From Nitrospiraceae bacterium (lineage in GTDB: Bacteria > Nitrospirota > Nitrospiria > Nitrospirales > Nitrospiraceae): DNA of 64,000 bases. Position numbers and translations under genes: made by a program. The notes beneath the pieces were generated by a model. The model did no database searches and was not told the origin of the DNA. It worked only from the letters and a program-made list of their open reading frames with translations. Shown piece after piece: positions 30,689 through 55,000 of this stretch (position 1 is the first letter of the stretch; each line of letters opens with the position of its first letter). The stretch spans positions 32,001-96,000 of the forward strand of contig JBFWWG010000012.1 of the NCBI GenBank assembly GCA_050246315.1. Reading direction: 5' to 3'.

Positions 30689-30771
30689 GGACGCCTCCTT
30701 TCCCCCTCACCGTCGCCCCTCCCCTTGAGGAGAGGGCGGAACCCAGGATCGTGAGGAGGATACGAAATACG

Positions 30772-30898: not shown

Positions 30899-30911
30899 CC
30901 GACGATACGAC

Positions 30912-31254
30912 GACGCGAGAGGAAAAAGCCATCCTCGATCTTCTGATCGATGCCGATGAGGCTGCGCTGGTCGGCCCGGTCCTCGTCGAATTCCTCCAGG
31001 GTTGCCGGACTGCTGCGGAACGAGAAACGCTCGCCGAGGCCCTTCTTGCCTTGCCCTATTTTGAGGTGACCCAATCCACCTGGCTTCGGATCGGCGACCT
31101 TTCCACAACCCTTCTTCGTCGAAGAGCGACGATCCCTCTATCAGACCTCACGATCGCATGCTTGGCGATCGAATGGGACTGTCGGGTCTATAGTCTCGAC
31201 GCTCACTTCAAGCGGATTCCCGGGGTACAGCTTTACACACCCGTATCGGCCTAG
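30912..31254 (+). pseudogene. 5'-truncated VapC/PIN toxin
   Basis: V.GPVLVEFLQG, IP.SDLTIA, YSLDAHF..IPG motifs; the N-terminal DTS catalytic motif and the antitoxin are missing. Confidence 0.7.
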
Positions 31255-35041: not shown

Positions 35042-35154
35042 TTCAGCCTCAACTCGCCAGGCCGAGACCCAGACTCCAAGATGACTCGCTATCGCATTCC
35101 ATGACATAAAGTTTAATAGAAGTATGATGTTATAACCTATTGATCTAATCGATC

Positions 35155-37326: not shown

Positions 37327-37583
37327 CGTCTTGGCATCGGCGGGACGGCCATCTCGTTGCCTCCTGCACACCTGGAGCAAACGGGCCTATCCTACTCACG
37401 CGCCGATGAATCGACGATTCTCCAGATGAATGGGATTCCCCCCTAATGGCACGGGGCCATACGGGACTCCACTCGGGAGGAATGAATGGACAAGGCCTGA
37501 TTGGGAAGACCGGGAGAGACCGCGAGCAGGAACTCCCTGGCGGATCAAGACCGCGACCTGATAGGACACAAGACTCGTGCGGG

Positions 37584-40500: not shown

Positions 40501-43500
40501 TCTCCGGGCTGCTCCACGACTGTGTCGTCGCCGACCGAATCGATCCGATAGACATCGTCGCCGGTACCGCCGATCAACGTGTCGGCGCCAACAGCACTGA
40601 CAAACCGATCCGGAACTGCCGTGCCGATTAGAGTCTCGTCCCCACTCGTACCGACAATAGACGCCGGCGCTTCACGGCGTTGCGTCAGATGTCTCCAATC
40701 GGTTGTGTCGAACGGTGAGAAGGCCGCTTTCCAGAGTCCAACCACCGTGGTCTTCTCCCATGTCGTGCCATCCTGAAATCGGACGATCGGGGGCGCTGCC
40801 TGATCGAAATATCCGACGACCCGCAACTTGTCCCCCGTCGAGCCGATCGCCAAAACCAGATTGTTGGGAATCGCCAAGATCTCATTGGAGTTGGACAGTA
40901 CCCGAATATCGCCGGGAGCGATGCCGTCGCCCAGTTGAATCGTTTCACTGCCGGTGAAATCGCTGATCTGATCCAGGCCCGATCCGATGCCGAAACGATA
41001 GGTGTCGTTTCCAGAGCCACCATCCAGGAGATCGTTCCCGCCGCCGCCGTCCATCAGATTCGCGCCGCTATTACCGATGAGGATGTTGTCGAGTCCATTC
41101 CCGAGACCCGCAATATCCGCGATTCCGGTCAGGACCAGACGCTCCAGATGATCGGATAATTGAAAAGAGGCGCTGCTCTCGACTGTATCGTAACCCTCGG
41201 CGATCCGTTCAATCACCACGTCGCCTGAATGATCCACGACGTACAGATCATCGCCGGCGCCGCCGATCAGGGTGTCCATGCCGGCCCCGCCGTCGAGACG
41301 ATTGACGCCACGATTGCCCACCAGCGTATTATCGAGGCCATTGCCGAAACCGTCCACCGTCGGAGACTCCACACCCTGGATCTCGAGCAGGCTGAGATCG
41401 GAATCTCTGAGCACCAGATTCTCCAGGTTGGCTCCCAAGCGATAGGTCCTCGCGCTTTCGACCGTATCGATTCCCTGCCCTGCCTCTTCGACAATCTGCT
41501 CGAACCCTTTTACGATGTACGTGTCGTTCCCCGCTCTTCCGGCCAGGATATTGACCGATCCGTTTCCGCTCAACACATTATCCAGCTCATTGCCGGTGCC
41601 GTTGATCGATCCCGTTCCACACAGCACGAGGTTTTCGATGTGGGCGCCTAATGTCGCCGTCGCCGTCGTTTGGACTGTGTCCGTGCCAGCGCCCGGTAAC
41701 TCAACAACCGTATCCCCCTCCCCAATTAGATAGGTGTCGTTGCCTTGACCGCCTGCCAGAACGTTGGCCGCAGCGTTTCCAATCAAGACGTTGTCGAGAT
41801 CATTGCCGGTCCCATCGACAGCGCCCGTCCCGGTCAAGGTCAACCGCTCAAGATTGGGGGCCAGCGCATGGCTCACGGCGCTGAACACCGAATCGATGCC
41901 CTCGCCGGGCAGTTCCACGATCGTGTCCCCCGGAGCGTCAACGAGATACTGGTCGTCGCCGGTCCCGCCGATGAGCCGATCGTCGCCGGTTCCACCATCC
42001 AGCACATCGTCGCCGTCGAGCCCGCGGAGTTCGTCATTGCCGCTGAGCCCGGTCAATATATCCACTCCGGTCCCTCCGACGACCACATCATCGGCAACAG
42101 TCCCGGCCAGTCTGGTTTGCGTCGCGGCTTCCAAATCGGCGGTATCCCAAACGGTGCCGTCGGCAAAGTGGACCTGTTCGATCTGGAAGGTCGAGGCGAG
42201 GAAAAACTCAGATAGCGTCAGGCGATCGGTTGTCCCATTGATGCTCAGGACAAGATCTCGCCCCTGGCGCCTCACGGCGACGTCACTGGGCAGCACATCC
42301 GTCCCGAAATGAATCGCATCCGCCATGCCGGCTCGATCGAGCACCCGATCCCACCCATCGCCCCGATTGAAGACATAGACATCGTCGCCGTCTTTACCTT
42401 GCAACACGTCATTCTCAGCTCCTCCCACCATCCGATCGGCGCCGTTCGTGCCGGCAAGCGTATCGGCGCCGGGGGTGCCCGCCACCTCAAACCCTCGCGC
42501 GATAAGCTGGTTGTATGAGAGCACCGTGCCGTCGCTGAATCGAAAAGTCTCAACCGCATGCAGGCCGAACACATCGTCAGGATTGAAGCCGGAGAGTCGA
42601 AGCTCATCGCCGCCCGTCCCGACGCGAATCGTCAAGATCGAGTCGTTTCGGAGAAACCCCAAGCGGAGCATGCCAGGTGTGATGCCGGGACCGAACACCA
42701 TTTCATTTCCTTCACCGGCGGTCGTAGAATCGGTGATCGTGTCGATACCGTCCCCAAGGTTGAAGACGTACTGATCGTGGCCGGCCATTCCAACCAGTTG
42801 ATCATCTCCCGCGCCACCCTGAAGCCGATCGGGCAAGGCCGTGCCGAATAGGTTGTCGCTGCCGGACGTGCCGACCAGCGTGAACCCACGCGCTACCAAC
42901 TCGGCGTAGGTCAGGGTCGTACCGTCGGCAAATTGGAACGTCTCGATATCGTGAGCGCCCGTGGGATTCGTGCGGCGCGCATTGGCCAACACGATGTCCT
43001 CCCCCGGCACGCCGGTTTGCACTGTCAAATTGCTCCCGTCCACGCCAAGCCTGACGGACTGCGACGAAATCCCCGGACCGAACCGCAAGACGTTGCCGGC
43101 GCCGGCCACCGCCGTATCGGCAATCACATCCCGCCCGTCTCCCTGCATGTGGAGATAGGTATCGTGGCCAGGCCCGCCATCGAGAAAATCCTCTCCCCGC
43201 CCGCCGATGAGCAGATCATCTCCGTCTTCACCACGCAGGCTGTCATTCCCCTCGCCACCCTCAAGCCGATCGTGGCCCAGGCCGCCGTAGAGGGTGTCAT
43301 TCCCGGATTCCGCTCGTAGGATGTCGTCGCCGGCCAGTCCGCTGAGCTGATCATGACCGTCGCCGGCCTGCATCTCATCCGCCAGATCGCTCCCAATCAT
43401 CTCCTCGTTCCCAGGCCCGCCGAGGGTCAGAACACCTTTGGTTTGCAGTTGGGCAAGTAGGGCGGTCCAGGCGATGGTCGTCCCATCGGCAAAGACCGCT

Positions 43501-46500
43501 TGGTCAAAGGCGTTCCCGTTATGCCGAATTCGATCATCCGGCGTCCCCACTATCAGAAAGGATCCCTGTCGATCTTGTCCCAACCGGAGCAAATCGATCG
43601 TGATGCCGCTGCCAAACTCAATGACATTGCCACCGGAGACATCAAAGACTTGATCCTCGCCATCGCCGAGGTTGAACCGATACCGATCGGCTCCATCCCC
43701 GCCAAGGACGGCATCATTGCCGGCCCCCCCTTCGAGCCGATCGGCGCCGGCCCCACCGTCTAACGTATCGGCCCCCTCGTCGCCGAACAATTGATCCTCG
43801 TCCTCGTCGCCATACAACGTGTCATTTCCCGTTCCACCGGTGAGCACGTCTCGATCGAGACCGCCGACCAACGTATCCTGTCCGTCCTCGCCAAAGAGTG
43901 TATCGTTCCCTTCTTGACCGAAGAGCCGGTCGTTGCCCGTATCGCCCACGAGCAGGTCGTCGCCGAGGTTGCCCTGCAGCTCGTCGTCCCCGGCATTTCC
44001 AAAGAGTCGGTCGTTGCCATCTTGGCCGAAGAGCAGATCATTGCCGGTCCCGCCGTCCAACTCATCCGTACCGATCCCTCCATCCAATTGATCGTCGCCG
44101 TCCTCGCCGAACAGCCAATCATCGCCCGCCTCGCCGAACAGCAGATCGGCCCCCTCCTCTCCCACTAAGGCATCGGCCCCGTCCCCGCCGGCCAGTTGAT
44201 CGTTGCCGGTCCCGCCGTAGAGGCTGTCATCGCCAGCGTCGCCGAACAACCGATCCTGCTCGCTGCCGCCGTCCAGCAGATCGTGACCGCCGCCCCCTTG
44301 CAATTCATCGCTCCCCGCGCCCCCATCGAGCGTGTCGTCAAAGCCCTGCGTAAGATTGTTGAGATAATCCCCCACCAAGAAATCATCGCCGTCACCTCCG
44401 AACAGCGCATCCTCGCCACCCCCGCCGATGAGTTCATCGTCCCCGAGCCCGCCGTCCAGCCAATCCTTGCCTTCTTGGATCACGCCGAGCTGAAGATCGT
44501 CTCCGGCCAGCACATCGACACCGGCTCCGCCAAGCAGCACATCGCCGCCCGCATCGCCTTGGAGATAGTCGTCTCCCTCACCGCCGTCGAGATAGTCCGC
44601 ACCACCCGTGACGCTATCAAAGGCCATACCACTTTGCGGCGTCACCACGCCCGGGTAGGCCAGTTCGAAGTTCGGCGCCGTAGCTGGCGCCTGATCGCCA
44701 TACAGCCGGTCATTCTCGGTGCCTCCCACCAACACATCCTCCCCGAGCATCCCCATCAACCAGTCCGCGCCGGCTCCGCCGTCCAGATAATCGTTGCCTG
44801 TCGTGGTCGCTCCCAGCGCCAGAGATTCCCCGGAGAGTAGATCGTTGCCGTCCTGCCCAAACAGCACATCGTCCCCGGAACCGCCATCGAGTCCGTCATC
44901 CCCGAGCCCGCCGGACAACGCATCCTGGCCGGTGCCTCCCTTGAGCAAATCAATGTCGTCCCCACCGTCCAGGACATCGTCGCCGCCGAACCCGCCCAGA
45001 ACGAGATCCCGTCCACTCCCCCCGAACACCCGATCATGGCCGTTGCCCCCGCGCAGCTCATCGTGGCCGTCGCCCCCGAAGATCTGATGATGGAAGAGCA
45101 TGCTCCCGCTTTCGAAGTTGAGAATGTCGTTGCCGCCATATCCGTAGGCTTCATGGTTTGCGGCAGCGGTGAAGATGGGCTGATTGTCCGTCGCGTCGCC
45201 GTCGTAGCGGATGGTCGCTTCACCGTTGTTGTAGTTGATAGTCGGGCCGGCGCTATCGACGAGGTTGCCTACATCGGCCAGCTTGATCCCCAACGCGCCA
45301 TTGGCGAAATCGAAGCTCTCGATGATAAGCGCATTATTGATCACGAGGTTCGCACCGGACTTCACGAAGGTAACCTGGCCGTCGGGACTCCGGTACGTAT
45401 CGATAGGATCACCCTGCCGTCGAATCCCCCCGACCAGCGTCTGCCCATCGAAGACAATCGTGCCGATTCTGTCGGCATCGACGATGCGATCCAGTCCTTG
45501 GCCCGAATGATAGAAATAGGTATCGAGGCCGGTGCCGCCGTCGAGCCGATCATCGCCGAGTCCGCCATTGAGCCGGTCGTTCTCGGCTTCGCCAAACAGT
45601 TGATCGTCGCCCTGCTGGCCCAAGAGAATATCGTTCTCGCTGCCACCGTAGAGTTCGTCACTCCCCGCGTTGCCTTCGAGATAATCTTGCCCACCTTGCC
45701 CGATCAGAAGATCGTCGCCGGCTCCACCATAGAGATGATCCCCGCCGGCATGGCCCGTGAGATCGCGGTTGTCCTGGGCATCGCCGAAGATCACCTCGTT
45801 CGCAGAGGCGACGCTACCCAGTTCCAATCCGGTCTGTTTGTCCACGTAATGCGTGTCGGTTGGAACCGTGTCGCCATCGTTGATATTCACCGCCAATCGC
45901 TTGGCCAGTAGCTCCGCTCGATCGCTCAAGGCATTCAAGGTCCAGGCGCCTTGCCCCGTCACCGTATCGTAGAGGTCCAGCGAGCCGTCTTGACTGTGCA
46001 TGGCCTGATAGTCCACGCCGCGCACAACGAACGGATTGAGTTCTTTGAGTGCATATCGATACGCCAGGCCATCGGCAGTTGAGGCTTTGGCTTGGCTATA
46101 CACCATACTATTGGAAACTCCGGCAAGACTGTCGAGACGATAGGAACTGACTGACGGCAGGTTGTCTCGGAAGGCGAAGAGATTGGTGTAGTAGGCGTCG
46201 CGATCACCCACTGGTGTTGTGGTTTGATTAGGTCCCAGGACCACCTTCCGGAGGGCGTCGAGGCCATTTTCTAGGCTATTGACCGCTGTTGCGGAGGCAG
46301 CATTGAGGATGGTTGTCACACTGGAGACAGACAGGCTCGGGTCGATGCGTGCGAACACATCGTACAAAGCCAACGCATCAACAAGAGACCGGGCGCTATG
46401 ATTGGTCAGCGGGTTCAGACTCGTCTCGATAAATGCATGTTCTACCTCTCCGAGTTGGCGGCCCTGACTGGAGACAAAAGAGGGGCCCTCCGCAATGAGG

Positions 46501-47063
46501 TTCGTAATCAAATGGTTGTCTATGGAAGCACCGGCCACGCCAAGAGAACCAAACGGATTGACCAGCACCCCACCGAACCCGGGAGCATTGTAGGTATAGG
46601 TATGGGATACGTTCAGTGGATGGTCGACGGTAAAGGCTTGAGCAAGATAACCACCCAGCGAATGTCCGGTGATAGTGAGATTGTCCGTGGGTAACAGCTT
46701 GCCCTCGGTGGTGAGTTGCAAATAGAAATTCTTCAACGAGACATATTGATCGGCTAGACCAAATAGGCCGATCTGGAGATCTGAAAGGAGGAGGTCTACG
46801 ACGTCGTTCGTCCCGCGGATTGCCAGAACCTTTTCGTTCGTGCCGATCCGCTGAAACAACGTCGCCGCAAATCCCGTCGTAACGTCGTTGAAGGTGCTGA
46901 CAATCGAGTATCGATTTGCAAACTCGGCTGCCTCAAGCGAGGCAAAGCCCCGCTCCTTCAACTCTTGGATATAGTCCGGCAAAGGCATTCCCACAAACAG
47001 CTCGGCATAGGCCGCATCCGCAAGTTGGGCCTGATCGTAATACGTACGGATTAAACCGCTCAT
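37584..47063 (-). CDS. 3159-aa RTX protein with N-terminal alpha/beta-hydrolase (lipase-like) domain
   Basis: GFAATLF, AIRGT, TGHSLGG, YNAPG in the first ~230 aa; many GGxGxDxL nonapeptides; HCBP-like F.DGT modules; C-terminal QLIQAMAGF secretion-signal-like end. Confidence 0.92.
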   Translation of the reverse strand: MSGLIRTYYDQAQLADAAYAELFVGMPLPDYIQELKERGFASLEAAEFANRYSIVSTFNDVTTGFAATLFQRIGTNEKVLAIRGTNDVVDLLLSDLQIGLFGLADQYVSLKNFYLQLTTEGKLLPTDNLTITGHSLGGYLAQAFTVDHPLNVSHTYTYNAPGFGGVLVNPFGSLGVAGASIDNHLITNLIAEGPSFVSSQGRQLGEVEHAFIETSLNPLTNHSARSLVDALALYDVFARIDPSLSVSSVTTILNAASATAVNSLENGLDALRKVVLGPNQTTTPVGDRDAYYTNLFAFRDNLPSVSSYRLDSLAGVSNSMVYSQAKASTADGLAYRYALKELNPFVVRGVDYQAMHSQDGSLDLYDTVTGQGAWTLNALSDRAELLAKRLAVNINDGDTVPTDTHYVDKQTGLELGSVASANEVIFGDAQDNRDLTGHAGGDHLYGGAGDDLLIGQGGQDYLEGNAGSDELYGGSENDILLGQQGDDQLFGEAENDRLNGGLGDDRLDGGTGLDTYFYHSGQGLDRIVDADRIGTIVFDGQTLVGGIRRQGDPIDTYRSPDGQVTFVKSGANLVINNALIIESFDFANGALGIKLADVGNLVDSAGPTINYNNGEATIRYDGDATDNQPIFTAAANHEAYGYGGNDILNFESGSMLFHHQIFGGDGHDELRGGNGHDRVFGGSGRDLVLGGFGGDDVLDGGDDIDLLKGGTGQDALSGGLGDDGLDGGSGDDVLFGQDGNDLLSGESLALGATTTGNDYLDGGAGADWLMGMLGEDVLVGGTENDRLYGDQAPATAPNFELAYPGVVTPQSGMAFDSVTGGADYLDGGEGDDYLQGDAGGDVLLGGAGVDVLAGDDLQLGVIQEGKDWLDGGLGDDELIGGGGEDALFGGDGDDFLVGDYLNNLTQGFDDTLDGGAGSDELQGGGGHDLLDGGSEQDRLFGDAGDDSLYGGTGNDQLAGGDGADALVGEEGADLLFGEAGDDWLFGEDGDDQLDGGIGTDELDGGTGNDLLFGQDGNDRLFGNAGDDELQGNLGDDLLVGDTGNDRLFGQEGNDTLFGEDGQDTLVGGLDRDVLTGGTGNDTLYGDEDEDQLFGDEGADTLDGGAGADRLEGGAGNDAVLGGDGADRYRFNLGDGEDQVFDVSGGNVIEFGSGITIDLLRLGQDRQGSFLIVGTPDDRIRHNGNAFDQAVFADGTTIAWTALLAQLQTKGVLTLGGPGNEEMIGSDLADEMQAGDGHDQLSGLAGDDILRAESGNDTLYGGLGHDRLEGGEGNDSLRGEDGDDLLIGGRGEDFLDGGPGHDTYLHMQGDGRDVIADTAVAGAGNVLRFGPGISSQSVRLGVDGSNLTVQTGVPGEDIVLANARRTNPTGAHDIETFQFADGTTLTYAELVARGFTLVGTSGSDNLFGTALPDRLQGGAGDDQLVGMAGHDQYVFNLGDGIDTITDSTTAGEGNEMVFGPGITPGMLRLGFLRNDSILTIRVGTGGDELRLSGFNPDDVFGLHAVETFRFSDGTVLSYNQLIARGFEVAGTPGADTLAGTNGADRMVGGAENDVLQGKDGDDVYVFNRGDGWDRVLDRAGMADAIHFGTDVLPSDVAVRRQGRDLVLSINGTTDRLTLSEFFLASTFQIEQVHFADGTVWDTADLEAATQTRLAGTVADDVVVGGTGVDILTGLSGNDELRGLDGDDVLDGGTGDDRLIGGTGDDQYLVDAPGDTIVELPGEGIDSVFSAVSHALAPNLERLTLTGTGAVDGTGNDLDNVLIGNAAANVLAGGQGNDTYLIGEGDTVVELPGAGTDTVQTTATATLGAHIENLVLCGTGSINGTGNELDNVLSGNGSVNILAGRAGNDTYIVKGFEQIVEEAGQGIDTVESARTYRLGANLENLVLRDSDLSLLEIQGVESPTVDGFGNGLDNTLVGNRGVNRLDGGAGMDTLIGGAGDDLYVVDHSGDVVIERIAEGYDTVESSASFQLSDHLERLVLTGIADIAGLGNGLDNILIGNSGANLMDGGGGNDLLDGGSGNDTYRFGIGSGLDQISDFTGSETIQLGDGIAPGDIRVLSNSNEILAIPNNLVLAIGSTGDKLRVVGYFDQAAPPIVRFQDGTTWEKTTVVGLWKAAFSPFDTTDWRHLTQRREAPASIVGTSGDETLIGTAVPDRFVSAVGADTLIGGTGDDVYRIDSVGDDTVVEQPGEGFDTVTGDVPSVYTLPTHVEALRAASSNFQLIGNELDNVLVENGGASTIDGGAGNDVLVGGYVRASSVAFDESQSDMLIGGAGDDILAPIGGTVRFMSGQEAILPVSNPSSILADDVLVGGAGDDTYVIYNSGEIIAEQTDGGIDTVRSSVSYELPDHVENLQLTTWGLPPGDGPAMTGTGNALDNLLIGSRNADVLSGGAGDDTLAGGSLRPSLSINEALAESMSDDGVNDLLIGGTGNDTYAVMGLASDTGLPDTIVEAAGEGIDTVASAVSYVLGDHLENLTLIGEGPSTGTGNALNNVLVGNQAANVLAGKQGNDRMLGGAGHDTYLFNAGDGIDTIDDRAVPGDGNVIQFGAGISRADLTLVQSSGLLTIQIGTNGDALRLVNFDPNDLNGSLVVETLAFADGTTVRVADLLGPRATDSDDLLEGGLADDEIEALDGNDVVDAGAGNDRIAGGTGNDTLTGGPGDDTYLFNLGDGVDTITDQALPGEGNSLQFGAGITPADLSLGLGSLVIRVGAGGDAIHLTSFDPADVFGPRAIETFRFADGTVLTYQDLLARGFDFVGTANDDALTGTDTTDRLMGLAGNDNMQSGGGDDLLDGGVGADRMAGGVGHDTYSVDDPGDVVTEMAGEGLDTVQSLVSYSLGANVENLTLAGTADLTGTGNELDNLLVGNSGRNRLTGGTGNDTYVVGMGDTVIESAGGGIDTIQTNVTWTLGSNLENLTLTGTGNINGHGNSLNNLIIGNAGMNWLDGGSGQDRLEGGEGHDLLLGGSGHDQLLGGLGNDALTAGSGHDLLDGGDGTDMLDGGSGDDQLSGGADDDLLLAGSGADQLAGGTGNDLLIGGSGHDDYLFARGDGQDRLIEDGGSGQDTVRFGATIDPLDLVLSRQADDLRIALYGTSDQITIHNWYDGTSNQTELIVAGNGQQLLNNQVDQLIQAMAGFTSQTGLSWEAAVAQRPEDVQAILAASWS

Positions 47064-47075
47064 TCTAACTTCCTC

Positions 47076-47606
47076 CTATTGCTCGCTTGCATTTTGGCGA
47101 ACGACCTGACGCCACAGGGTGCCGTAGAGATCACGACCAAATTGCGGACAAGGATCCGGGGCAGCTTCAATCAAGATCGTCGTATGCAACCAACCACCGA
47201 AGTAAGAGAATCCTGTTGCCATACCCAAATGTTCTCCGTTTTCTTTATCAATGAGGACGCCTTGATGTTTTGTCATATGAAACACTCTCGAAAAGGCGCG
47301 GTCCATTGTCGTTTGCCAGTCGAGCCGTTCGAGTAGCAATTTCTTCTCATCCAGTCGTCCGTCAGGCATGAAATATGTCTTGTCCACCTCAATAGTCTTG
47401 AAGACTTCTACCCCTCCCTCTTTCTGGCAAATGTATTGATGGTACAGCCGTCCAGGAATGATGTCCCACGTGGGGATCAATACAAAGATCGCGATGGTTG
47501 CGTATTTTGCAAGCTTGCTCTGCGTACGCACTTCCATTCGCTGGGCCATATACCGCGCAAGCCCGACATAAAGCCCGCAGAGGAGAAGAACCGCTAAGCC
47601 AAACAT
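47076..47606 (-). CDS. Membrane-anchored immunity/partner-like protein A
   Basis: Two N-terminal hydrophobic helices, PTWD..PGR.Y..Y.C.KEGG....KT, GGW...CP; ends 12 nt before the RTX start. Confidence 0.75.
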   Translation of the reverse strand: MFGLAVLLLCGLYVGLARYMAQRMEVRTQSKLAKYATIAIFVLIPTWDIIPGRLYHQYICQKEGGVEVFKTIEVDKTYFMPDGRLDEKKLLLERLDWQTTMDRAFSRVFHMTKHQGVLIDKENGEHLGMATGFSYFGGWLHTTILIEAAPDPCPQFGRDLYGTLWRQVVRQNASEQ

Positions 47607-47696
47607 CCACGCCGCCTTTCGCTTGTGGTGATTGCCAAGTCGCCGTTGCCTAAGGTCATCACCCTTACCGGCATACCTATGGGCGTTCAGAGAGGG

Positions 47697-48347
47697 CGTT
47701 CCGGACATCTTCCCAATGATTTCATCGCGAAGCGTCCGTGTCCCAAGTACCGCGGCCTGACCCCACCCGCAAGCCGCGGCATCCTAGGTGATTGCCCGAT
47801 TGAAATGCGATTCTTCAGAGGAGGAGTGGGCTCCCCTACTGGTAGGTGCCCTGCGCGTCGCGAAGGACGACTCGCATCGAACCGCCGGGCATTGCTGATT
47901 GAGACTGATTGTCTCGGGATCGGGAGGACTTGTCGAGGATTTCCGCCGAGATGGACGGCGCGCACCACGACCATCACGAAAATGGGACCATTGCTACTTT
48001 GAATCGTGATCAGCCTCCAATCACTTCGCCAACTCGAACGGCCTGTCCAGATACGGCCCCCACCCAGGGTTGTGCGACAGTCTTTTGCCTGCCAAGACCA
48101 ACTTGGACGAGCCGAAGAACGCGCCTGCAATTGAGAAGAAGCACCGGCGGTCCTCGCGGAGCATCCCAGAAGTCCGTTCGTGGTGAGCCTGTTGAACCGT
48201 GAAGGGAACTGCTTCAGCCCGGGCGCTCTTCGAGCGGCTCAGGACGAATGGATTATCACAGGAACTTAAAGGACACTACTACGGTGGCTGAGTCTGAAGG
48301 GCGGCCAGCCGGACGGGCTCGACAGCCGAGTATCAAGTCAAGCAACG
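47697..48347. repeat. Cassette leader repeat, copy 1 (651 bp)
   Basis: Near-identical to 51113-51763 (constant offset 3416) and similar to 49650-50222. Confidence 0.95.
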
Positions 48348-48628
48348 CCCCCTAAGCAGGTATCGAAGATCAGCGTCGCCGAGAACCCTGTCGCATCGTT
48401 GGCGTGATGATCGAGGATTTGGTAGCGCTGGATGAATTGCTGCGCTTGAAGAGCGGTGAAACGAGTCTTACCCATGAACTGGTCAAGGGGAACTACACGG
48501 CGGTCATTATTGCCGTCTATAAGGACTTGTTGAAGTGTACTACCCTGCACCACAAACTGATCAAGATAAGACTCCGCTGCCGTTTGTTGAAGAGCAAAAT
48601 CGAGCCAAGTCTTGATGCTAGTTGCCAT
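48338..48628 (-). pseudogene. Orphan 5' stub of a divergent RTX-lipase (cassette B)
   Basis: MATSIKTWLDFALQQTAAESYL...RYQILDHHANDATGFSATLIFD aligns with the RTX N-terminus and stops right after GFSATL. Confidence 0.8.
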
Positions 48629-49589
48629 CTTTCTGCTCCTTCACGTCGAATGGAAAAGGTTTCAGAACTTTTTGTATAAATTTGAAAGTATGGTTGGTTC
48701 CTCGATTTGGACAACTAGGCCCTGTCAACCACCAGACACCCGTCATGTTGTTGCGAACTAAGCCGGTTCGCATATACCCACGGCGGACGGCCAGTACCTC
48801 GTTCGTCTTGAGATCAAGAACGATGAGCTCACCGCCAGCAATTCCCAATGTCCTCTCATGTGGCCGATTGATTCCCCGCCACGTGTAACCATATCGGCTC
48901 TTGATCTCTGACACGGTCGCTTCTGCAACAACATAAGGAACAAACACTCCTTGCTCGTTTATTGCCGTCTGATATTTTCTTCCCGGGTGTGCGTTCTCGT
49001 CTCGGAAGTACCGTCGATATCGTTCAGCCTCACCAGATGATCCTGATAAGGGCACCTCCAAGAACTGATACTTGCCGGTAGCTGGTTGAACATATGTATC
49101 CTGCACAAGATAGGATTCATCTGTTGTGTGGCCATAGGGGTCTTCTAGAGCATACAGATGACTCAGTTCATCATCCGTGGCTTCCTTCCTCGGCCGCATC
49201 ATGTACAGCCCTTCCACATTCTCTACGGTCTTGTAGATAAACTCCCCGGCTTCGGCCTTGCAGAGATGTTCGAAATACTGCTCGGGTGTCATGCCCGGCT
49301 TGTACCCGCTGTCTGCCGGCACTGGATTGGGAATCTTGAGTGAGTGCGCGAACCGACCTTCTTCGGTCGCCAGCGGATCGGCGGGTTGAAGCTTCGTGAT
49401 GTCGCACCGGTGGTTGGCGGGTTTGATCTTATGCGTGGCACAGTATTCAGCTTCTCGTTTGATCGCTTTCCGAAATCGCTCGCCGGGTGTCTCGTCCTGC
49501 GACAGCAACCCGGCGATGGCATACGAGGCACTCAACAGCCCAATCACGAAGACCATCATGCTGCGGCCTCCCTTCATTTCGATGCTCAT
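48618..49589 (-). CDS. Secreted immunity/partner-like protein B
   Basis: AAGGAGG RBS, signal peptide, FEHLCKAEAGEFIYKTVENV, IAGGEL.V.DL.TNEVLAVRRGY, W.TGPSCP; overlaps the stub start. Confidence 0.75.
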   Translation of the reverse strand: MSIEMKGGRSMMVFVIGLLSASYAIAGLLSQDETPGERFRKAIKREAEYCATHKIKPANHRCDITKLQPADPLATEEGRFAHSLKIPNPVPADSGYKPGMTPEQYFEHLCKAEAGEFIYKTVENVEGLYMMRPRKEATDDELSHLYALEDPYGHTTDESYLVQDTYVQPATGKYQFLEVPLSGSSGEAERYRRYFRDENAHPGRKYQTAINEQGVFVPYVVAEATVSEIKSRYGYTWRGINRPHERTLGIAGGELIVLDLKTNEVLAVRRGYMRTGLVRNNMTGVWWLTGPSCPNRGTNHTFKFIQKVLKPFPFDVKEQKDGN

Positions 49590-49649
49590 CCCATCCTCCT
49601 TAGCTCCATGGCCTTCTCCACCCGGAGCCGCAGGCGGACTCACATCCGC

Positions 49650-50222
49650 AGCCGCGGCATCCTAGGTGCTTGCCCGATTGAAATGCGATTCTTCAGAGGA
49701 GGAGTGGGCTCCCCTACTGGTAGGTGCCCTGCGCGTCGCGAAGGACCGTTATCCTTCAGCCGCCGAACATTGTTGATTGAGGCTGATTGTCTCGGGATCA
49801 GAAGGACTTGTCGAGGAGTTCCGCCGAGATGGACGGCGCGCACCACGACCATCACGAAAATGGGACCATTGCTACTTTGAATCGTGATCAGGCTCCATTC
49901 ACTTCGCCAACTCGAACGGCCTGTCCAGATACGGCCCCCACCCAGGGTTGTGCGACAGTCTTTTGCCTGCCAAGACCAACTTGGACGAGCCGAAGAACGC
50001 GCCTGCAATTGAGAAGAAGCAACGGCGGTCCTCGCGGAGCATGCCAGAAGTCCGTTCGTGGTGAGCCTGTCGAACCATGAACGGAACTCCTTGAGCTCGG
50101 GCGCTCTTCGAGCGGCTCAGGACGAATGGATTATCACAGGAACTTAGAGGACAGTACTGCGGTGGCTGAGTCTGAACGGCCAGCCGGACGGGCTCGACAG
50201 CCGAGTATCCAGTCAAGCAACG
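49650..50222. repeat. Cassette leader repeat, copy 2 (more divergent)
   Basis: Colinear with copies 1 and 3, with scattered substitutions. Confidence 0.93.
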
Positions 50223-50226
50223 ACCC

Positions 50227-50481
50227 TCAAGCAACGTCATGACCCTCAAGCAACATCCTGCCGTTCCGTTGGAACAACGTCGCGGCAAATCCCGTCGTAA
50301 CGTCGTTGAAGGTGCTGACAATCGAGTATCGATTTGCAAACTCGGTTGCCTCAAGCGAGGTAAAGCCCCTGTCTGTTAAGGCTCGGACATAAATATCTTC
50401 AAGCATACCCACGGCCAAATTGGCATATGCCGCATCGGACAATTCGGCGTGCTCATAATACGTGCGGATTGCCTCGTTCAT
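50227..50481 (-). pseudogene. Orphan 5' stub of the RTX-lipase (cassette C)
   Basis: MNEAIRTYYEHAELSDAAYA...RYSIVSTFNDVTTGFAATLFQR, then unrelated residues; GGAGG RBS. Confidence 0.85.
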
Positions 50482-50482
50482 T

Positions 50483-51022
50483 TCAGGTACCTCCAGAATT
50501 CGTTTCTGTCTTGGGACGAAAGACCTCCTGCCAAATCTTCTCATAGGGATCAGGGCTGAACTGCGGACAAGGATCTGGCGCAGCCTCACTTAGGATTGTC
50601 GTATGGAGCCAGCCGCCGAAGTAGGAGAACTGTGTCGCTGTCCCCAATTTATCTCCGGTTTGCCTATCAAGAATGGAAAGTTGATGCTTCGTGATACGGA
50701 ATACTTTCGAAAATCCTCGAACTATGCTTGTTTGCCTATCGAAGCGCTTTTGAAGTTCTTTTTCATCCAGTCGTCCGTCAGGCATGAAATACGTCTTGTC
50801 CACCTCAATAGTCTTGAAGACTTCTACCCCTCCCTCTTTCTGGCAAATGTATTGATGGTACAGCCGTCCAGGAATGATGTCCCACGTGGGGATCAATACA
50901 AACATCGCGATGGTTGCGTATTTGCCAAGCTTGCTCTGCGTACGCACTTCCATTCGCTGGGCCATATACCGCGCAAGCCCGACATAAAGCCCGCAGAGGA
51001 GAAGAACCGCTAAGCCAAACAT
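50483..51022 (-). CDS. Membrane-anchored immunity/partner-like protein C (paralog of A)
   Basis: First 88 aa nearly identical to A, C-terminal half diverged. Confidence 0.8.
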   Translation of the reverse strand: MFGLAVLLLCGLYVGLARYMAQRMEVRTQSKLGKYATIAMFVLIPTWDIIPGRLYHQYICQKEGGVEVFKTIEVDKTYFMPDGRLDEKELQKRFDRQTSIVRGFSKVFRITKHQLSILDRQTGDKLGTATQFSYFGGWLHTTILSEAAPDPCPQFSPDPYEKIWQEVFRPKTETNSGGT

Positions 51023-51112
51023 CCACGCCGCCTTTCGCTTGTGGTGCTAGCCAAGTTGTAATTACCTAATCTCATTGCTCCTGGTTACATACCTATGGAC
51101 TCTTCGAGATGA

Positions 51113-51763
51113 CGTTCCGGACATCTTCCCAATGATTTCATCGCGAAGCGTCCGTGTCCCAAGTACCGCGGCCTGACCCCACCCGCAAGCCGCGGCATTC
51201 GAGGTGCTTGCCCGATTGAAATGCGATTCTTCAGAGGAGGAGTGGGCTCCCCTACTGGTAGGTGCCCTGCGCGTCGCGAAGGACGACTCGCATCGAACCG
51301 CCGGGCATTGCTGATTGAGACTGATTGTCTCGGGATCGGGAGGACTTGTCGAGGATTTCCGCCGAGATGGACGGCGCGCACCACGACCATCACGAAAATG
51401 GGACCATTGCTACTTTGAATCGTGATCAGCCTCCAATCACTTCGCCAACTCGAACGGCCTGTCCAGATACGGCCCCCACCCAGGGTTGTGCGACAGTCTT
51501 TTGCCTGCCAAGACCAACTTGGACGAGCCGAAGAACGCGCCTGCAATTGAGAAGAAGCACCGGCGGTCCTCGCGGAGCATCCCAGAAGTCCGTTCGTGGT
51601 GAGCCTGTTGAACCGTGAAGGGAACTGCTTCAGCCCGGGCGCTCTTCGAGCGGCTCAGGACGAATGGATTATCACAGGAACTTAAAGGACACTACTACGG
51701 TGGCTGAGTCTGAAGGGCGGCCAGCCGGACGGGCTCGACAGCCGAGCATCCAGTCAAGCAACG
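51113..51763. repeat. Cassette leader repeat, copy 3
   Basis: Near-identical to 47697-48347. Confidence 0.95.
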
Positions 51764-51938
51764 ACCACAAGGCCTCGACTCCACCGGCTTGGGCAGGGTA
51801 TCAGCCAACCGCGACATCCGGGGTCACTGGATTGGCCTGATCAGCCTGTGAATCAGAAAGGAAAGTGCGGGCTGGACGCAGATTGCCTACGCTGCAAGCT
51901 GGCGAGAGCCGACAGCGCCGCTCGCTCACGTGATCCCG

Positions 51939-52370
51939 TTATGGAGCGGCGGGCAGGATCGTTCTGGCGAGGGCGGTGGCGGTGAAGTCGCTTCCGATCG
52001 AGCTCTTGACGTTGTCAGGGGGCGCTTCGATCAACGCTTCGACCTGCATGACCATCCCGTGGCGTGCGGGTTGGGTCAGGCTTTCATCCTCCTGGCATCG
52101 CACCAGATAGACCACTCTGATCGTTCCCGTGCTGTCTTCCAGATCGAAGTCCTGTCCACAGAGCGATTGGACCGCGACATTCCTGCCCGACCTCGTCCCG
52201 ATCACATGGACTTTCCCTTGTATGCGGACCACCTTTCGGTGAAAGCCTGTCGGATTGGACAGGATCTTCTCAATCGGGATGATCTGGTCTGCTGCGAACG
52301 CGGGCACGCCTCCAACGCAAACCGTCAAGACACCGATGCCGAAGACGGTTTGGACAAACCCTGTTCTCAT
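51939..52370 (-). CDS. Secreted OB-fold-like protein
   Basis: Signal peptide (PAFA), I..IL.NP..F..K.V.I.G.V and F.LEDSTG.I.V motifs. Confidence 0.7.
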   Translation of the reverse strand: MRTGFVQTVFGIGVLTVCVGGVPAFAADQIIPIEKILSNPTGFHRKVVRIQGKVHVIGTRSGRNVAVQSLCGQDFDLEDSTGTIRVVYLVRCQEDESLTQPARHGMVMQVEALIEAPPDNVKSSIGSDFTATALARTILPAAP

Positions 52371-52455
52371 CGGTCTACTCCCTTCTGATTGTTGCCCCAT
52401 CCAGACTGTACGACAGGCCGCGTCAATGCCCAACTAATTCTGCGCTTTGGTCTCG

Positions 52456-52484
52456 TTGACAAGCCGGTTGCTCCCACCTAAGAT
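52456..52484 (+). promoter_or_regulatory. Sigma70-type promoter
   Basis: TTGACA-17 nt-TAAGAT upstream of the UDG gene. Confidence 0.65.
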
Positions 52485-52510
52485 TCGCCCCGTTCATCTA
52501 TCCGACTGTT

Positions 52511-53167
52511 ATGGCGATGACACTCCAAGAACTCAGCACCTCGCTCCACAACTGCCAGCGTTGTAAGCTCGCCAAGCTCGGCCGGTCTCAAGTGGTCTTC
52601 GGCGTCGGCAACCCTCACGCCTCGATCATGTTCGTCGGCGAGGCGCCCGGTTTTTACGAAGATCAGAAGGGAGAGCCGTTCGTCGGCGCAGCGGGCAAAC
52701 TCTTGAACGATCTTTTGCAGTCTGCGGGACTGTCACGTTCCGAAATCTACATTGCGAACGTCATCAAGTGCCGGCCGCCCAACAACCGCGACCCGGAGCC
52801 GGACGAGGTCGAAACCTGTAAGCCCTTCCTCATGGAACAGATCGGCCTGATCAAGCCGAAGCTTGTCTGCACGCTCGGCAACTGGGCGACCCAGACCTTG
52901 ATGGAGCGGAAGGTGGGGATTACGAAGGTGCGGGGACAGGCGTTTTATTTGAAGGACTTCGTGCTGTTTCCATTGTTCCATCCGGCCGCAGCACTGCACC
53001 AGGGCAATTTGATGGATTCGTTGCGGGAGGATTTCAAGAAACTGAAGACGTATCTCGATAAGATGCGCGCGGAGCCACCGCCCGCATCCACGCCGGCACA
53101 GCCCGATCAGTCTTCATCGGAGACAAAGGAGGGGGAGGCCGCGACTCAGATGAGCCTCTTCGGCTAG
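52511..53167 (+). CDS. Uracil-DNA glycosylase family 4 (Fe-S)
   Basis: C..C.L, VGEAPG..ED..G.PFVG.AG, N..KCRPP.NR.P, HPAA. Confidence 0.93.
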   Translation: MAMTLQELSTSLHNCQRCKLAKLGRSQVVFGVGNPHASIMFVGEAPGFYEDQKGEPFVGAAGKLLNDLLQSAGLSRSEIYIANVIKCRPPNNRDPEPDEVETCKPFLMEQIGLIKPKLVCTLGNWATQTLMERKVGITKVRGQAFYLKDFVLFPLFHPAAALHQGNLMDSLREDFKKLKTYLDKMRAEPPPASTPAQPDQSSSETKEGEAATQMSLFG

Positions 53168-53208
53168 TCTTTCCGGTCGAGGCGCGTGGGATCGCCGCCG
53201 CGAGCCGA

Positions 53209-53676
53209 TTACTTCGAAGCGGGCGACTTGGCATCGGAGGAACTCGCCGACGATTCCTTCTCAGGCTGCATCCCTTCCTCTCCAGGCTGTTCGCTCGGTT
53301 CCGGCTCATCGAACCAGGCCGCCAGCATGTCTTCCCACCAGGCCTCATTCACCTCGTCACCGGGATCAACACCGATGCCGGCCACATCGGTCGCCGTGAG
53401 GGAAGCCCCGGCCGCAGACGGAGTCGCCTTGAGGTGATCGATGACCTGTTTGGTGGCGAAACCGCCGACCATCCAGCTATCGGGGTCGGCACGGCGCGAT
53501 TTATAGGCCTTCAGGTTTTGTTTCAAATAGAGAAAGATGGCGCGTTGTGGGTCATCGCCCACGCCGGACTGAGGCAGGCTCAAGATCTTCTCGATCTTTT
53601 TTCGCCATTTCCAGTCGTTGTACCGTGAGGTGATCAACTGCAACATCTTTCCGCCCAGTTCAGCGTCCAGCGCCAT
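53209..53676 (-). CDS. Hypothetical protein
   Basis: Natural-looking ORF co-oriented with its neighbour. Confidence 0.7.
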   Translation of the reverse strand: MALDAELGGKMLQLITSRYNDWKWRKKIEKILSLPQSGVGDDPQRAIFLYLKQNLKAYKSRRADPDSWMVGGFATKQVIDHLKATPSAAGASLTATDVAGIGVDPGDEVNEAWWEDMLAAWFDEPEPSEQPGEEGMQPEKESSASSSDAKSPASK

Positions 53677-53683
53677 AGTCCAC

Positions 53684-53974
53684 CTAATTCCTCTCCTCTT
53701 CCCGCAATGCCACGGTGTCGTTCAGCCCGGCCGCCTCGAGAATCTCGCACACCGGCCGGTGGTAGACGCGCGGCACATAAAAAAACAGCCCCTTATAGAC
53801 ACTGCCGAAGATCGCCCCCAGCATCGACTCATTCCGATATTCTTCCAGGCTGAGCGCGTAGTCCACTCCTTGCGCCGTCAAGGCCTGCTCCGCCGCTTCC
53901 GCCTCGCGAGACGTGCCGGCGATATAGACCAAGCTCAGCGGGGCTGCAAACCACTCTGTCGTGCGCCGCGCCAC
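53684..53974 (-). CDS. Hypothetical protein
   Basis: Natural-looking ORF ending 7 nt before the next start. Confidence 0.65.
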   Translation of the reverse strand: MARRTTEWFAAPLSLVYIAGTSREAEAAEQALTAQGVDYALSLEEYRNESMLGAIFGSVYKGLFFYVPRVYHRPVCEILEAAGLNDTVALREEERN

Positions 53975-54187
53975 GTCTGAATTCCTGCGGTGACGTTAGC
54001 CCGCATTATTCATGACGGTTCGTTGCGTTCCACCCGTTGCAGTGAAAGCGCAACGGGTACCCGGCAGTCGCCAAGCGAGACGGGCAAGCGCAGCCGCGAA
54101 AGACTGAGCGGCGAGCGCGCCCGCCGTCAGGCTCTGTCGCAGCGGCGAATCCGCGATTGCAGCAGGAGTGTTCATAAATAATGCAGC

Positions 54188-54889
54188 TTAGGCCAGGTGC
54201 TGGCGAAAGAAGGCCACTGCCCGTCCCCACGCATCTTGCGCCTCGGCCGGCCGATACACTTCCTTCCTCGTATCGTTAAAGAAGGCGTGCGTCGCTCCCG
54301 GATAGGTCTTGATCTCACCTGCCTTACCATATTTCTTCAACGCTCCGGCCAACCGTTGCACATCGGCCCTGGTGATCCAGCCGTCGTCCTCTCCATAGAT
54401 ATAGAGGATCGGACAGGCCAGGTTCTGGATCGGATTGTCCGGATTCGGCACCTGCCCGTAGAAAGGCACCGCGGCTCTAATGTCCCGACTCACACAGGGC
54501 AACATCAGCGTATAGGACCCGCCCATACAAAACCCGATGACCCCGATGCGACCGGCATCGACCTCCGGTGCCAGCCTGAGATAGGTCACCGTCGCGACGA
54601 GATCGTTGAGGCCGTCCTCCTGTTTCAGCTTGTTCATCAGTTGACCGGCTTCGTTCGCATTGGTGGTGACGACATGGCCAAAGCGCGAATAGAGATCCGG
54701 TGCGATCGCCACATACCCCTCCCTGGCCACACGCCGCGCAATGTCCTTGATATGGTCGTTCAGCCCCCACCATTCCTGGACGACGATGATCGTGGGCCTC
54801 GGTTCTTTGGCCGCTTCCGAGACGAGGAGCGCGCGGATGGTGCCCCCCTCGCCGGGATACTGCACCATGGTTTCGTTCAGTTCCGGCAT
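54188..54889 (-). CDS. Dienelactone hydrolase family protein
   Basis: QEWWGLN.HI, APDLY, GFCMGG, HAFFND. Confidence 0.92.
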   Translation of the reverse strand: MPELNETMVQYPGEGGTIRALLVSEAAKEPRPTIIVVQEWWGLNDHIKDIARRVAREGYVAIAPDLYSRFGHVVTTNANEAGQLMNKLKQEDGLNDLVATVTYLRLAPEVDAGRIGVIGFCMGGSYTLMLPCVSRDIRAAVPFYGQVPNPDNPIQNLACPILYIYGEDDGWITRADVQRLAGALKKYGKAGEIKTYPGATHAFFNDTRKEVYRPAEAQDAWGRAVAFFRQHLA

Positions 54890-55000
54890 GATGCTCAGTT
54901 ACTACCGTTACTACCGTAGCGTCGTAGAAGTTCGTTCGTGGTGAGCCCTTCGACTGGCTCAGGGCGAACGGATCTTCACCTGAAGGAAAGGAAGACAATA

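Follow-up and report, generated by a model that had tools for sequence, protein, structure and literature searches.

Results

Layout of the locus

The DNA analysed here (the window) is a stretch of 64,000 nucleotides from a Nitrospiraceae bacterium (GenBank assembly GCA_050246315.1, contig JBFWWG010000012.1, positions 32,001 to 96,000), and the region in question forms, in this Nitrospira genome, the variable 5' end of an operon for type I secretion. It encodes a giant repeats-in-toxin (RTX) protein, toxin A, directly preceded by a small gene, partner A. Two further cassettes, B and C, lie upstream. Each holds an intact partner gene and a toxin gene cut down to a stub, and all three cassettes are headed by a copy of an upstream element, E. 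In the direction of transcription the order is: flank with a gene for an oligonucleotide/oligosaccharide-binding (OB) fold protein, E3, partner C, stub C, E2, partner B, stub B, E1, a 67-nt patch, partner A, toxin A, an ATP-binding cassette (ABC) exporter and HlyD. The cassettes, toxin A and the transporter genes are all on the minus strand (Table 1). Partner A was read from the ATG of MFGLAV because cassette C carries in-frame stops upstream of it.

Table 1. Features of the cassette array and secretion operon, in the order of transcription (positions in the window)
Feature	Position	Strand	Remarks
OB-fold gene, native flank of the array	51939-52433		
E3, copy three of the upstream element, directly adjoining the native flank that leads to the OB-fold gene	51114-51756	-	99.2% identity to E1; flank synteny with G002, G001, G003
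Partner C, orphan, intact, 179 aa	50483-51022	-	N-half 98%, C-half 55% identical to partner A
Toxin stub C, A-like toxin codons 1-75, then 9 E2-derived codons and stop	50227-50481	-	
E2, second copy of the upstream element (E positions 1-591), 19-nt tandem repeat at left edge	about 49650-50259	-	93-94% identity to E1; left edge matches native G002 sequence
Partner B, orphan, intact, 324 aa from the ATG after a Shine-Dalgarno site	48618-49592	-	Start given by the open reading frame (ORF) caller: GTG 49643
Toxin stub B, 96-aa ORF, B-type toxin N-terminus to ...GFSATLIFDT, then into E1 and stop	48338-48628	-	Alignment to B-type toxins
E1, 643-bp upstream element (putative native promoter and leader region)	47698-48340	-	3 genome copies, all in the locus
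Second, short stretch of divergence, in the leader that separates E1 from the start of partner A	47631-47697	-	25/67 substitutions, 0 gaps
Right homology arm, partner A N-terminal half and 24 nt of leader	47340-47630	-	Counterpart 50756-51046; 7/291 differ
Partner A, 176 aa from the ATG of MFGLAV	47076-47606	-	ORF caller extends to 47708
Hypervariable island, cassette A	46952-47339	-	Toxin codons 1-38 (46950-47063), 12-nt spacer with ribosome-binding site, partner A C-half (47076-47339)
Left homology arm, toxin A codons 38-75 (helix 3, strands β1-β2), ends GFAATLFQR	46840-46951	-	Counterpart in stub C 50258-50369; 7/112 differ
Toxin A, 3159-aa RTX giant	37584-47063	-	Sole full-length toxin of the array
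Toxin A N-terminal module, aa 1-331, predicted class-3 lipase-like α/β hydrolase fold	46071-47063	-	Ends at GLAYRYALKELNPF motif
HlyB-type type I secretion ABC transporter, N-terminal C39-like domain	35155-37380	-	TIGR01846; Pfam ABC_membrane, ABC_tran, Peptidase_C39
HlyD-family membrane fusion protein	33686-35338	-	Pfam HlyD_3 E-value 2.4e-20, HlyD_D23

The exporter scores 1031 bits against TIGR01846 (cut-off 725.55). Toxin A matches the RTX repeat family PF00353 (HemolysinCabind) in 8 stretches of its last 499 aa (E-value 1.8e-32) and again in its first 500 aa (E-value 3.8e-13). It also matches the HCBP_related domain, and its C-terminal tail (...AQRPEDVQAILAA.W.) is kept among homologues. 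On these sequence features, it is most likely an RTX protein exported via type I secretion.

Cassettes A and C form a mosaic

An earlier note on this DNA, made by reading the sequence alone, had described blocks shared by cassettes A and C on either side of a diverged segment. A sliding-window identity plot of A versus C, a check proposed there, displayed the alternation as claimed. The toxin blocks 46855-46951 and 50273-50369, said to be nearly alike, differ at exactly 3 of 97 bases (codons 41, 46 and 66), or at 7 of 112 over the whole arm (46840-46951). The partner 5' halves, said to be almost identical, show 7 differences in 291 positions (47340-47630), and the stretch between the arms (46952-47339) is indeed diverged, with 139 of 389 alignment columns differing, 4 of the columns being gaps. 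Thus three blocks (toxin codons 38-75, partner 5' half and E, the last with 5 differences in 643) are 94-99% identical, and the island formed by the partner 3' half and toxin codons 1-38 is about 64% identical. Island and arms differ at Fisher p = 5e-11 and 2e-30. Perfect identity extends without a break over at most 61 nt (toxin arm), 121 nt (partner arm) and 539 nt (E). The mosaic is real and far beyond chance.

The bracketing coordinates of the earlier note were right, with the amendment that the right-hand homology continues past 47630, through a 67-bp patch into the 643-bp E. The patch (47631-47697 versus 51047-51113) lies just upstream of the partner start codon, contains substitutions only and is flanked by near-identical stretches. 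A diversity-generating retroelement as its source was ruled out by eye, the substitutions not being adenine-specific. The left arm sits at the extreme end of stub C, and after codon 75 cassette C passes into E2. That toxin C is a 75-codon stub, that E is repeated, and that the whole N-terminal module is replaced relative to a related genome (see below) had been overlooked in that note.

The contrast is as sharp at silent sites. Between A and C, partner codons 1-88 have dS 0.07 and dN 0.01, and codons 89 to the end dS 1.94 and dN 0.30. In the toxin the order is reversed, codons 1-38 giving dS 1.15 and dN 0.38, and codons 39-73 dS 0.126 and dN 0.039. The likeness of the arms extends to silent sites, which purifying selection acting on the protein could not bring about. 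The dN/dS measurement suggested earlier for the variable segment yielded omega 0.15-0.33, that is, purifying selection between old alleles, with positive selection not detectable. The sequences thus indicate that the island consists of old alleles kept under purifying selection.

Module replacement and recurrence of the island

The genome G002, of the same genus, has a syntenic locus with flank proteins 94-98% identical to those of the window and the order OB gene, E, partner B, giant toxin. Its toxin is B-type over the first ~477 residues, and its RTX body is 98.6% identical to toxin A aa 501-1200; nucleotide homology between the two toxin genes begins at toxin A codon 332, at the motif GLAYRYALKELNPF. 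The presence of different modules on a near-identical RTX body implies that partner and lipase module have been exchanged on a constant delivery body. To judge from this comparison, cassette B looks like the remnant of a G002-like state. Single pairs are found in two further genomes, B-type in G001 and A-like in G003.

Cassette B and G002 display a second island. E and the first 166 codons of the partner B ORF are close to G002 (dS 0.099), and identity falls sharply at ~49143. The C-terminal part of partner B (dS saturated, dN 0.52) and toxin B codons 1-62 (dS saturated, dN 0.47) are highly diverged, and identity recovers over toxin codons 63-88 (dS 0.124). A third island separates G117 and G250, two genomes of another genus with intact, single-copy, full-length pairs. 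Their flanks have dS 0.036 over 118 + 542 codons and are 96-100% identical for at least 850 nt upstream and 1600 nt downstream. The island between them, ~380 nt at 38-66% identity and saturated, takes in the last ~68 partner codons and the first ~58 toxin codons. Among 26 close pairs, which share ancestry and are not independent, the least conserved segment was the partner C-half or toxin 1-38 in 22. Furthermore, partner homologues carry A-type or C-type C-halves on different N-halves, as expected of shuffled halves. P0003, P0004 and P0005 share 83-89% of their C-half residues with partner A, against 69-70% over the N-half; for P0013 compared with partner C the figures are 78% (C-half) and 69% (N-half).

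Chance conversion tracts are unlikely to have put three independent islands in one position, and this in two partner families that are unrelated. Old polymorphism that peaks between young flanks usually marks alleles maintained for a long time, and the selected site would then lie beneath the peak. The earlier proposal that the segment swaps as a unit is upheld by the dS contrast and by the recurrence in B/G002 and G117/G250. Its second half did not fare as well: a co-evolving specificity interface, with the two halves in contact and setting specificity, is a putative one.

These comparisons also bear on a neutral explanation, in which illegitimate duplication or insertion would have left dead stubs, paralogues would convert each other sporadically, and the island would be the part not yet converted, devoid of any function. 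Such a history suits the stubs, which are clearly non-functional as toxins, and it suits the mosaicism within E itself (E1/E2 differences are clustered at positions 437-472 and 570-587), the extra patch at 47631-47697 and the presence of miniature inverted-repeat transposable element (MITE)-like repeats and RAYT/IS200-like genes in or near the arrays of relatives. Yet the island recurs in place in the three comparisons and in both partner families, and the intact single-copy loci of different genomes exclude intragenomic conversion. Saturated island dS beside flank dS of 0.04-0.13 fits long-maintained alleles, and the orphan partner ORFs remain intact. We regard the neutral explanation as decidedly improbable.

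The array in independent sequencing runs

This stretch is present almost unchanged in sequencing runs of nine studies, and ~90% of its sampled words occur in 14 DNA runs. In unitigs of three DNA studies (wastewater, landfill and aquatic) the A-, B- and C-specific parts were covered with 0 differences, at A/B/C depths, by study, of 49.8/47.5/53.2, 18.3/16.8/16.8 and 12.3/12.8/9.9. Unitigs in X1, X5 and X8 span the stub B/E1 and partner B/E2 junctions (48305-49693), a unitig of X1 spans the stub C/E2 junction (50180-50314), and the junction of E3 with the native flank (51717-51900) is spanned as well. A tandem stitched together from strain variants of one locus might have been suspected in a 30-contig assembly with 600-bp repeats, which are hard to assemble. 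Because the A, B and C parts are covered exactly and at equal depth in independent runs and the stub/E junctions are bridged, such an artefact is scarcely credible; comparable arrays are, moreover, present in other genomes.

The A/C chimeras, or loss of the 3.4-kb interval, that the earlier note had envisaged did not appear in contigs of the three DNA studies, in which rare variants are invisible. The array is stable in these three populations. Two apparent joints were dismissed: 46806>48221 in X5 had only 21 nt on one side, and a joint in X15 that goes back 1878 equals the E1-E2 spacing and is a repeat-mapping effect of a related strain's contig. That contig, on 47792-48162 and 49167-49669 (depth 43, 18 differences), appears to carry E and the 5' part of partner B of a co-occurring relative.

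Programmed variation would make the upstream cassettes silent donors, copied into the expressed gene by frequent RecA-dependent conversion in the manner of pilE/pilS, so that toxin and partner specificity would switch inside a population. The architecture agrees with this idea, and with the recombination or gene conversion inferred in the earlier note, in that a partial donor copy lies between arms matching the expression copy, with identical runs of 61 and 121 nt. It fits less well that C is the only homologous donor, B having no nucleotide homology to A in the gene bodies, and that identical A, B and C parts at equal depth in three studies are accompanied by no supported joint. Arm dS of about 0.07-0.13 argues against very recent conversion, and a single pair is the state of 17 of 22 genomes inspected (see below). 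Programmed variation is therefore highly improbable in our view.

Element E

The genome contains E three times, always at this locus, and G002 contains it once, upstream of partner B. Positions 385-590 of E (47751-47956 in E1) are a non-coding, strongly conserved leader that shares 82% identity with the stretch preceding the partner gene of G003, from the same genus, and ~95% with G002. These alignments point to E as the native upstream region, copied with each cassette. Every copy carries a promoter-like TCGACA-17-GACAAT, and the conserved leader may serve as a regulatory 5' region; the leader and its equivalents in E2 and E3 also hold a GGGGAGC...CTCCTCC stretch. The E of G002 is 95% identical to E1 and E3 and 92% to E2, yet the 5' half of partner B, downstream of E2, is 97-100% identical to G002.

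Other readings of E were tried and rejected. It is not coding, as substitutions between E1 and E2 fall 16/11/15 over the codon positions without 3-base periodicity. It is not a mobile element either, only its internal positions 57-193 being dispersed in the genome: all 18 further genome matches fall inside them. They represent a decayed version of a MITE-like element, ~125 nt long and bounded by inverted ends (CTAGTGTTGTGTCCC ... GGGACGCAACACTAG), and the ends are decayed inside E. The element is found at 48161-48279, 50050-50175 and 51577-51695 in E1-E3, as a partial copy at 54906-54953, and in L004-L012. The MITE-like part of E folds no better than shuffles (z-score -0.35), which speaks against a structured RNA, and an Rfam search over 36000-56000 at E-value <= 1 returned nothing in the cassette region, leader included.

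The two stub/E junctions of the window are close together and not identical. In both stubs a GTTGCTTGA motif supplies the TGA at which the ORF terminates. The left edge of E2 (50222-50259) and G002 (L069 8270-8310) have ~2.5 copies of a 19-nt tandem unit, GTTGCTTGAGGGTCATGAC; E1 and E3 have fewer.

A lipase-like module and two unrelated partner families

Residues 1-340 of toxin A were modelled by AlphaFold2 (AF2) as an α/β hydrolase with a predicted local distance difference test score (pLDDT) of 80.2. Foldseek gave 42 matches to the module at E-value <= 1e-3, the best being 3o0d_D (Yarrowia Lip2, E-value 6.7e-7); those listed comprise lipases, phospholipases A1, feruloyl esterase A and, in fifth place, one type VI secretion system (T6SS) lipase effector, 9cys_A from Enterobacter. 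A profile of 19 homologues matched the lipase 6a0w in the PDB (E-value 1.9e-6), and the GHSLGG nucleophile elbow (S135) and H222 are invariant in all 19 sequences. The best Pfam hydrolase match, Mbeg1-like PF11187, reached 18.4 bits against a cut-off of 21.1, and Abhydrolase_6 was also below its cut-off. Taken together, the model and these matches indicate that the N-terminal module has a class-3 lipase-like fold, and the module would be toxic as a lipase.

Partner A has 59 homologues of 141-203 aa, all nameless or "hypothetical" and without a Pfam domain; 46 of them were aligned, fragments and low-coverage rows being left out. C60 is invariant, and C153 is present in at least 90% of the sequences. 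In the AF2 model (pLDDT 89.7) a hairpin of two hydrophobic helices (H2-28 and H31-43), joined by a basic loop, precedes a β-rich domain. The basic interhelix loop and the two conserved cysteines suggest that this C-terminal domain is periplasmic. Partner B is unrelated to partner A and has a signal-peptide-like N-terminus, and its homologue in G031 carries a lipobox-like LLAAC. Partner B homologues paired with B-type toxins are present in G016, G031, G167, G001, G002 and G084.

Neither partner has a sequence match in Pfam, NCBIfam or the PDB, and in Protein Atlas both fall in nameless "hypothetical" clusters. Neither FrpD (5EDF) nor Smlt3025 (6PDK) was matched in the PDB by the partner A profile or by partner B at E-value <= 10, and a Foldseek search with the partner A model found nothing at E-value <= 1e-3. 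An HlyC-type acyltransferase was rejected for partner A, given the lack of a Pfam or NCBIfam hit and the N-terminal hydrophobic helical hairpin of the model. Two complex-prediction runs that paired toxin 1-335 with partner 53-176 each scored 0.00, which is evidence neither for nor against an interaction.

Pairing and orphan partners among relatives

An A-type partner is present in 24 of 301 sampled genomes of the family. Twenty-two of these loci were inspected by tblastn with the partners and toxin starts of the window, a search that other partner families would escape. In every fetched locus holding both genes the partner lies directly upstream of the toxin, with a stop-to-start gap of about 1-80 nt, mostly <40 nt. 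Pairing is type-specific, A-type partners standing with A-type toxins and B-type with B-type. The 17 loci with a single pair apart, orphan partners with truncated toxins occur upstream in G000 (this genome), G016, G031, G091 and G167. In these five genomes the orphan partner ORFs are uninterrupted in 7 of 7 cases, and the toxins beside them are full length in 0 of 7: they end at ~aa 75, 93, 130 or 528-732, or are frameshifted. Partners without any cognate toxin are also found: in G084 an A-type partner stands alone, 195 kb away from the single lipase toxin of that genome, a B-type one, and the metagenome contig L042 has two tandem partner genes and no toxin. Intact partners without toxins behave as immunity genes would; an accessory factor would be expected to decay.

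The partner might nevertheless be an accessory docking the toxin N-terminus, either an FrpD-like tether or receptor, a steric chaperone resembling lipase foldases, or an activator. The island would then be the docking interface and the orphans undecayed leftovers. FrpD, encoded directly upstream of frpC, binds the RTX N-terminal domain with a Kd of ~0.2 nM, according to the available text of PMC5233953. Strict pairing, tight gene spacing, an island straddling both genes in three comparisons and the lipoprotein-like homologue of partner B in G031 would all suit an accessory of this kind. Against it stand the intact orphans beside toxins of which none is full length, since an accessory to a lost toxin should decay, and the solitary or tandem partners of G084 and L042. 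Nor do the partners match FrpD, Smlt3025, HlyC or the Lif families in sequence, and no substrate of a type I secretion system (T1SS) is known to require a periplasmic foldase. An accessory role is thus unlikely, and an immunity-like role is the one we prefer.

Several further observations concern the arrays of relatives. Longer orphan toxins in L022 (G016) and L030 (G091) end at DGQ(F/V)T(F/Y)V (toxin A residue 561) or within an RTX repeat, followed by ...RKAA/RKVA-stop directly before the next partner start; the copied unit there has no E-like spacer. RAYT/IS200-like transposase genes with short inverted ends lie inside partner-toxin arrays of other Nitrospira (L034 2316-2990; L060), and in G167 (L060) the truncation of the orphan toxin coincides with such an insertion, between the toxin B stub and partner A. 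G018 (L025/L032) has a decaying single locus, with the partner frameshifted into ORFs of 86 + 76 aa and the toxin into ORFs of 426 + 2696 aa. Partner-toxin pairs of the same family also occur outside Nitrospirota (L031/L050, L049), one of these contigs being labelled Cyclobacteriaceae; L049, an unlabelled metagenome contig, holds three partner-like genes and two lipase toxins in a row.

Neighbouring genes

In most relatives (L028, L047, L055-L067) the genes follow one another as ABC, HlyD, partner and toxin; this genome and G002 have partner and toxin ahead of the transporter genes. The type I secretion genes are closely followed, downstream, by a gene for a WYL/WCX-domain regulator (32005-33021), and near it an ORF at 30664-31254 has a weak, below cut-off PIN match (E-value 1.6e-4).

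Discussion

A probable type I-secreted polymorphic toxin

We think it reasonably probable that the locus encodes a polymorphic toxin secreted by a type I system, with an upstream, periplasmic, immunity-like partner, in a mirror image of contact-dependent growth inhibition (CDI) and Rhs loci. The partner would be the immunity protein, the island would determine specificity, and some switching may go on to the present day. The RTX body and the C-terminal signal would carry the protein out through the type I system. As type I secretion needs the C-terminus, the variable toxin module is N-terminal and the cognate partner gene lies upstream. The partner, most likely an envelope protein, would neutralise the lipase; partners of types A and C have a membrane hairpin and a two-cysteine domain, and those of type B a signal peptide or a lipoprotein-type signal.

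Variation would arise at two levels. At the first, the partner and the lipase domain up to the GLAYRYAL motif would be replaced by homologous recombination at conserved sequence, giving A here and B in G002. At the second, an island of 380-700 nt (the partner C-half and the first 38-62 toxin codons) would be exchanged as a unit between near-identical flanks. Cassettes C and B would be modules from an earlier state, or imported ones, retained as orphans. Each has a copy of E to itself, an intact partner and a toxin stub cut after strand β2, and they would plausibly keep protecting against the toxins of other strains. As stub C retains an arm, the C-half of partner C and residues 1-38 of toxin C could reach the expressed toxin. 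If a crossover fell within the 61-nt run, 3.4 kb would be lost, and the product would be partner C and a toxin with C-type residues 1-38 on the A body; a conversion tract ending in both arms would swap the island only. The stubs themselves may have arisen by one homologous and one illegitimate join per event, or by one founding duplication followed by unequal crossing-over and allelic replacement.

A bolder version is possible but doubtful. The locus would then represent an undescribed kind of polymorphic toxin built for type I secretion, with warhead and immunity at the 5' end. The junction island (immunity C-domain and first 40-60 toxin residues) would set self and non-self, with ancient alleles kept by frequency-dependent selection and moved by recombination, and the orphans, each under a promoter copy of its own, would be an expressed immunity archive from which an island can be reinstalled via the arm of stub C.

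A number of observations weigh against the polymorphic-toxin interpretation. The link between partner and toxin consists of adjacency and type-specific pairing, as read from the sequences. The soluble domain of partner A matches no known immunity fold, although a VIA-wide comparison, which matched hairpin residues 1-47 only, barely tested that domain. Lipase_3 was not reached in the Pfam scan of toxin A, and a T1SS-secreted protein of 3159 aa would have to find a path into a neighbour's periplasm. Upstream orphan arrays are present in only 5 of the 22 inspected genomes, and site-specific truncation was rejected because the stub junctions differ among genomes (~aa 75, 93, 130 and 528-732). The promoter-like sites in E are weak consensus matches, 4 found versus 2.5 expected. 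Contigs from one metatranscriptome map to each of the three cassette-specific parts (the RNA run X15 being without cover over 50702-51900), but contigs from RNA libraries may include DNA and show presence only.

As for selection and exchange, the island's low omega does not demonstrate positive selection, which would escape detection at such divergence, and with no supported chimera or deletion joint in contigs of the three DNA studies, where rare variants do not show, ongoing switching is unsupported. Across 23 pairs the partner C-half and toxin 1-38 covary (Mantel r 0.72; partial r 0.52 given the toxin body, versus 0.29 for the partner N-half), but all segments correlate and physical linkage would yield the same covariation. 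A weak counterexample is G072, whose partner C-half is A-like (68% versus 49%) and whose toxin start is slightly more C-like (74% versus 66%; 28 versus 25 of 38 residues).

Nitrospira are key nitrite oxidisers in wastewater treatment and soils, and competition between their strains is little understood. If the interpretation holds, type I-secreted RTX giants can be polymorphic antibacterial toxins that follow the logic of CDI and Rhs end for end, and the locus would provide a testable case for the published hypothesis of FrpC/FrpD as effector and immunity. Two large families of "hypothetical" envelope proteins would gain a function. The junction island is in addition a natural experiment, in which ~130 partner and ~40-60 toxin residues may define cognate recognition.

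Comparison with known systems

T6SS Tle lipases are antibacterial toxins, and their Tli immunity proteins are periplasmic or lipoproteins. The toxin A module resembles them in its class-3-like lipase fold (PDB 9cys and 7ubz are among the matches), a likeness at the level of the fold only (Foldseek E-value 2.2e-6, template modelling score 0.39-0.47, 18% identity). Delivery differs, T6SS there and T1SS/RTX here, and the partners are unrelated.

A similar gene arrangement is described for FrpD-FrpC of Neisseria meningitidis (PMC5233953) and Smlt3025-Smlt3024 of Stenotrophomonas (PMC6759196), in which the gene directly upstream of that for the RTX protein encodes a small envelope protein specific for the N-terminal domain of the RTX protein. 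For FrpC/FrpD, Bayer-Santos et al. (PMC6759196, 2019) proposed that the N-terminal domain of an RTX protein may act as an antibacterial effector of a T1SS, its immunity protein being a lipoprotein encoded upstream. The available text on these pairs mentions no orphan arrays or junction islands. In sequence searches partners A and B gave no match to FrpD or Smlt3025, and the toxin domain here has a predicted lipase fold.

In colicin and pyocin nucleases, most of the divergence falls on the immunity gene and on the neighbouring part of the toxin that binds immunity, and this is read as co-diversification of an interface. The locus described here is similar in that divergence lies at the adjoining ends of toxin and putative immunity genes, between conserved flanks. 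It differs in that gene order and toxin end are opposite and binding is putative. A literature search for the colicin "immunity region" found nothing; nuclease-immunity pairs of this kind are treated in PMC4548480.

For esaG and tipC, associated with type VII secretion, conserved blocks in tandem immunity paralogues are described in the available part of PMC9484751 as substrates of homologous recombination that reshuffle, expand and delete immunity genes. Shared blocks in tandem paralogues as recombination substrates are thus common to both cases. In that part of the paper the blocks lie within the immunity genes only, whereas here the unit enters the first 38-62 codons of the toxin and one arm is in the toxin gene.

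CDI (CdiA-CT/CdiI) and Rhs systems, in the available text of PMC3150448 and PMC3482391, share with this locus a variable toxin module fused to a conserved body at a conserved motif (here GLAYRYAL...), an adjacent cognate small gene, displaced modules beside the main gene and exchange between close relatives. Stub C likewise keeps a conserved piece, codons 38-75 (7/112 differ, with a 61-nt run), permitting recombination with the main gene. The accessible part of PMC3482391, a 2012 survey, defines polymorphic toxins by C-terminal toxin domains and mentions type I secretion for classical RTX toxins only. The differences from CDI and Rhs are in orientation and delivery. Here the toxin module is N-terminal, with partner and orphans upstream, whereas in CDI and Rhs the toxin is C-terminal, with immunity and orphans downstream. 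Secretion of the RTX protein is by type I, each orphan carries a copy of the promoter and leader, and the orphan toxins of this genome are just 75-93-codon stubs, with immunity a putative function deduced from sequence. Our literature search returned no account, for any T1SS substrate, of orphan arrays at the 5' end or of an island straddling the junction, the 2019 FrpC/FrpD hypothesis being all that was found. The logic of CDI and Rhs is known; judged by this search, its proposed N-terminal, T1SS-borne version with 5' orphans and a junction island appears to be new.

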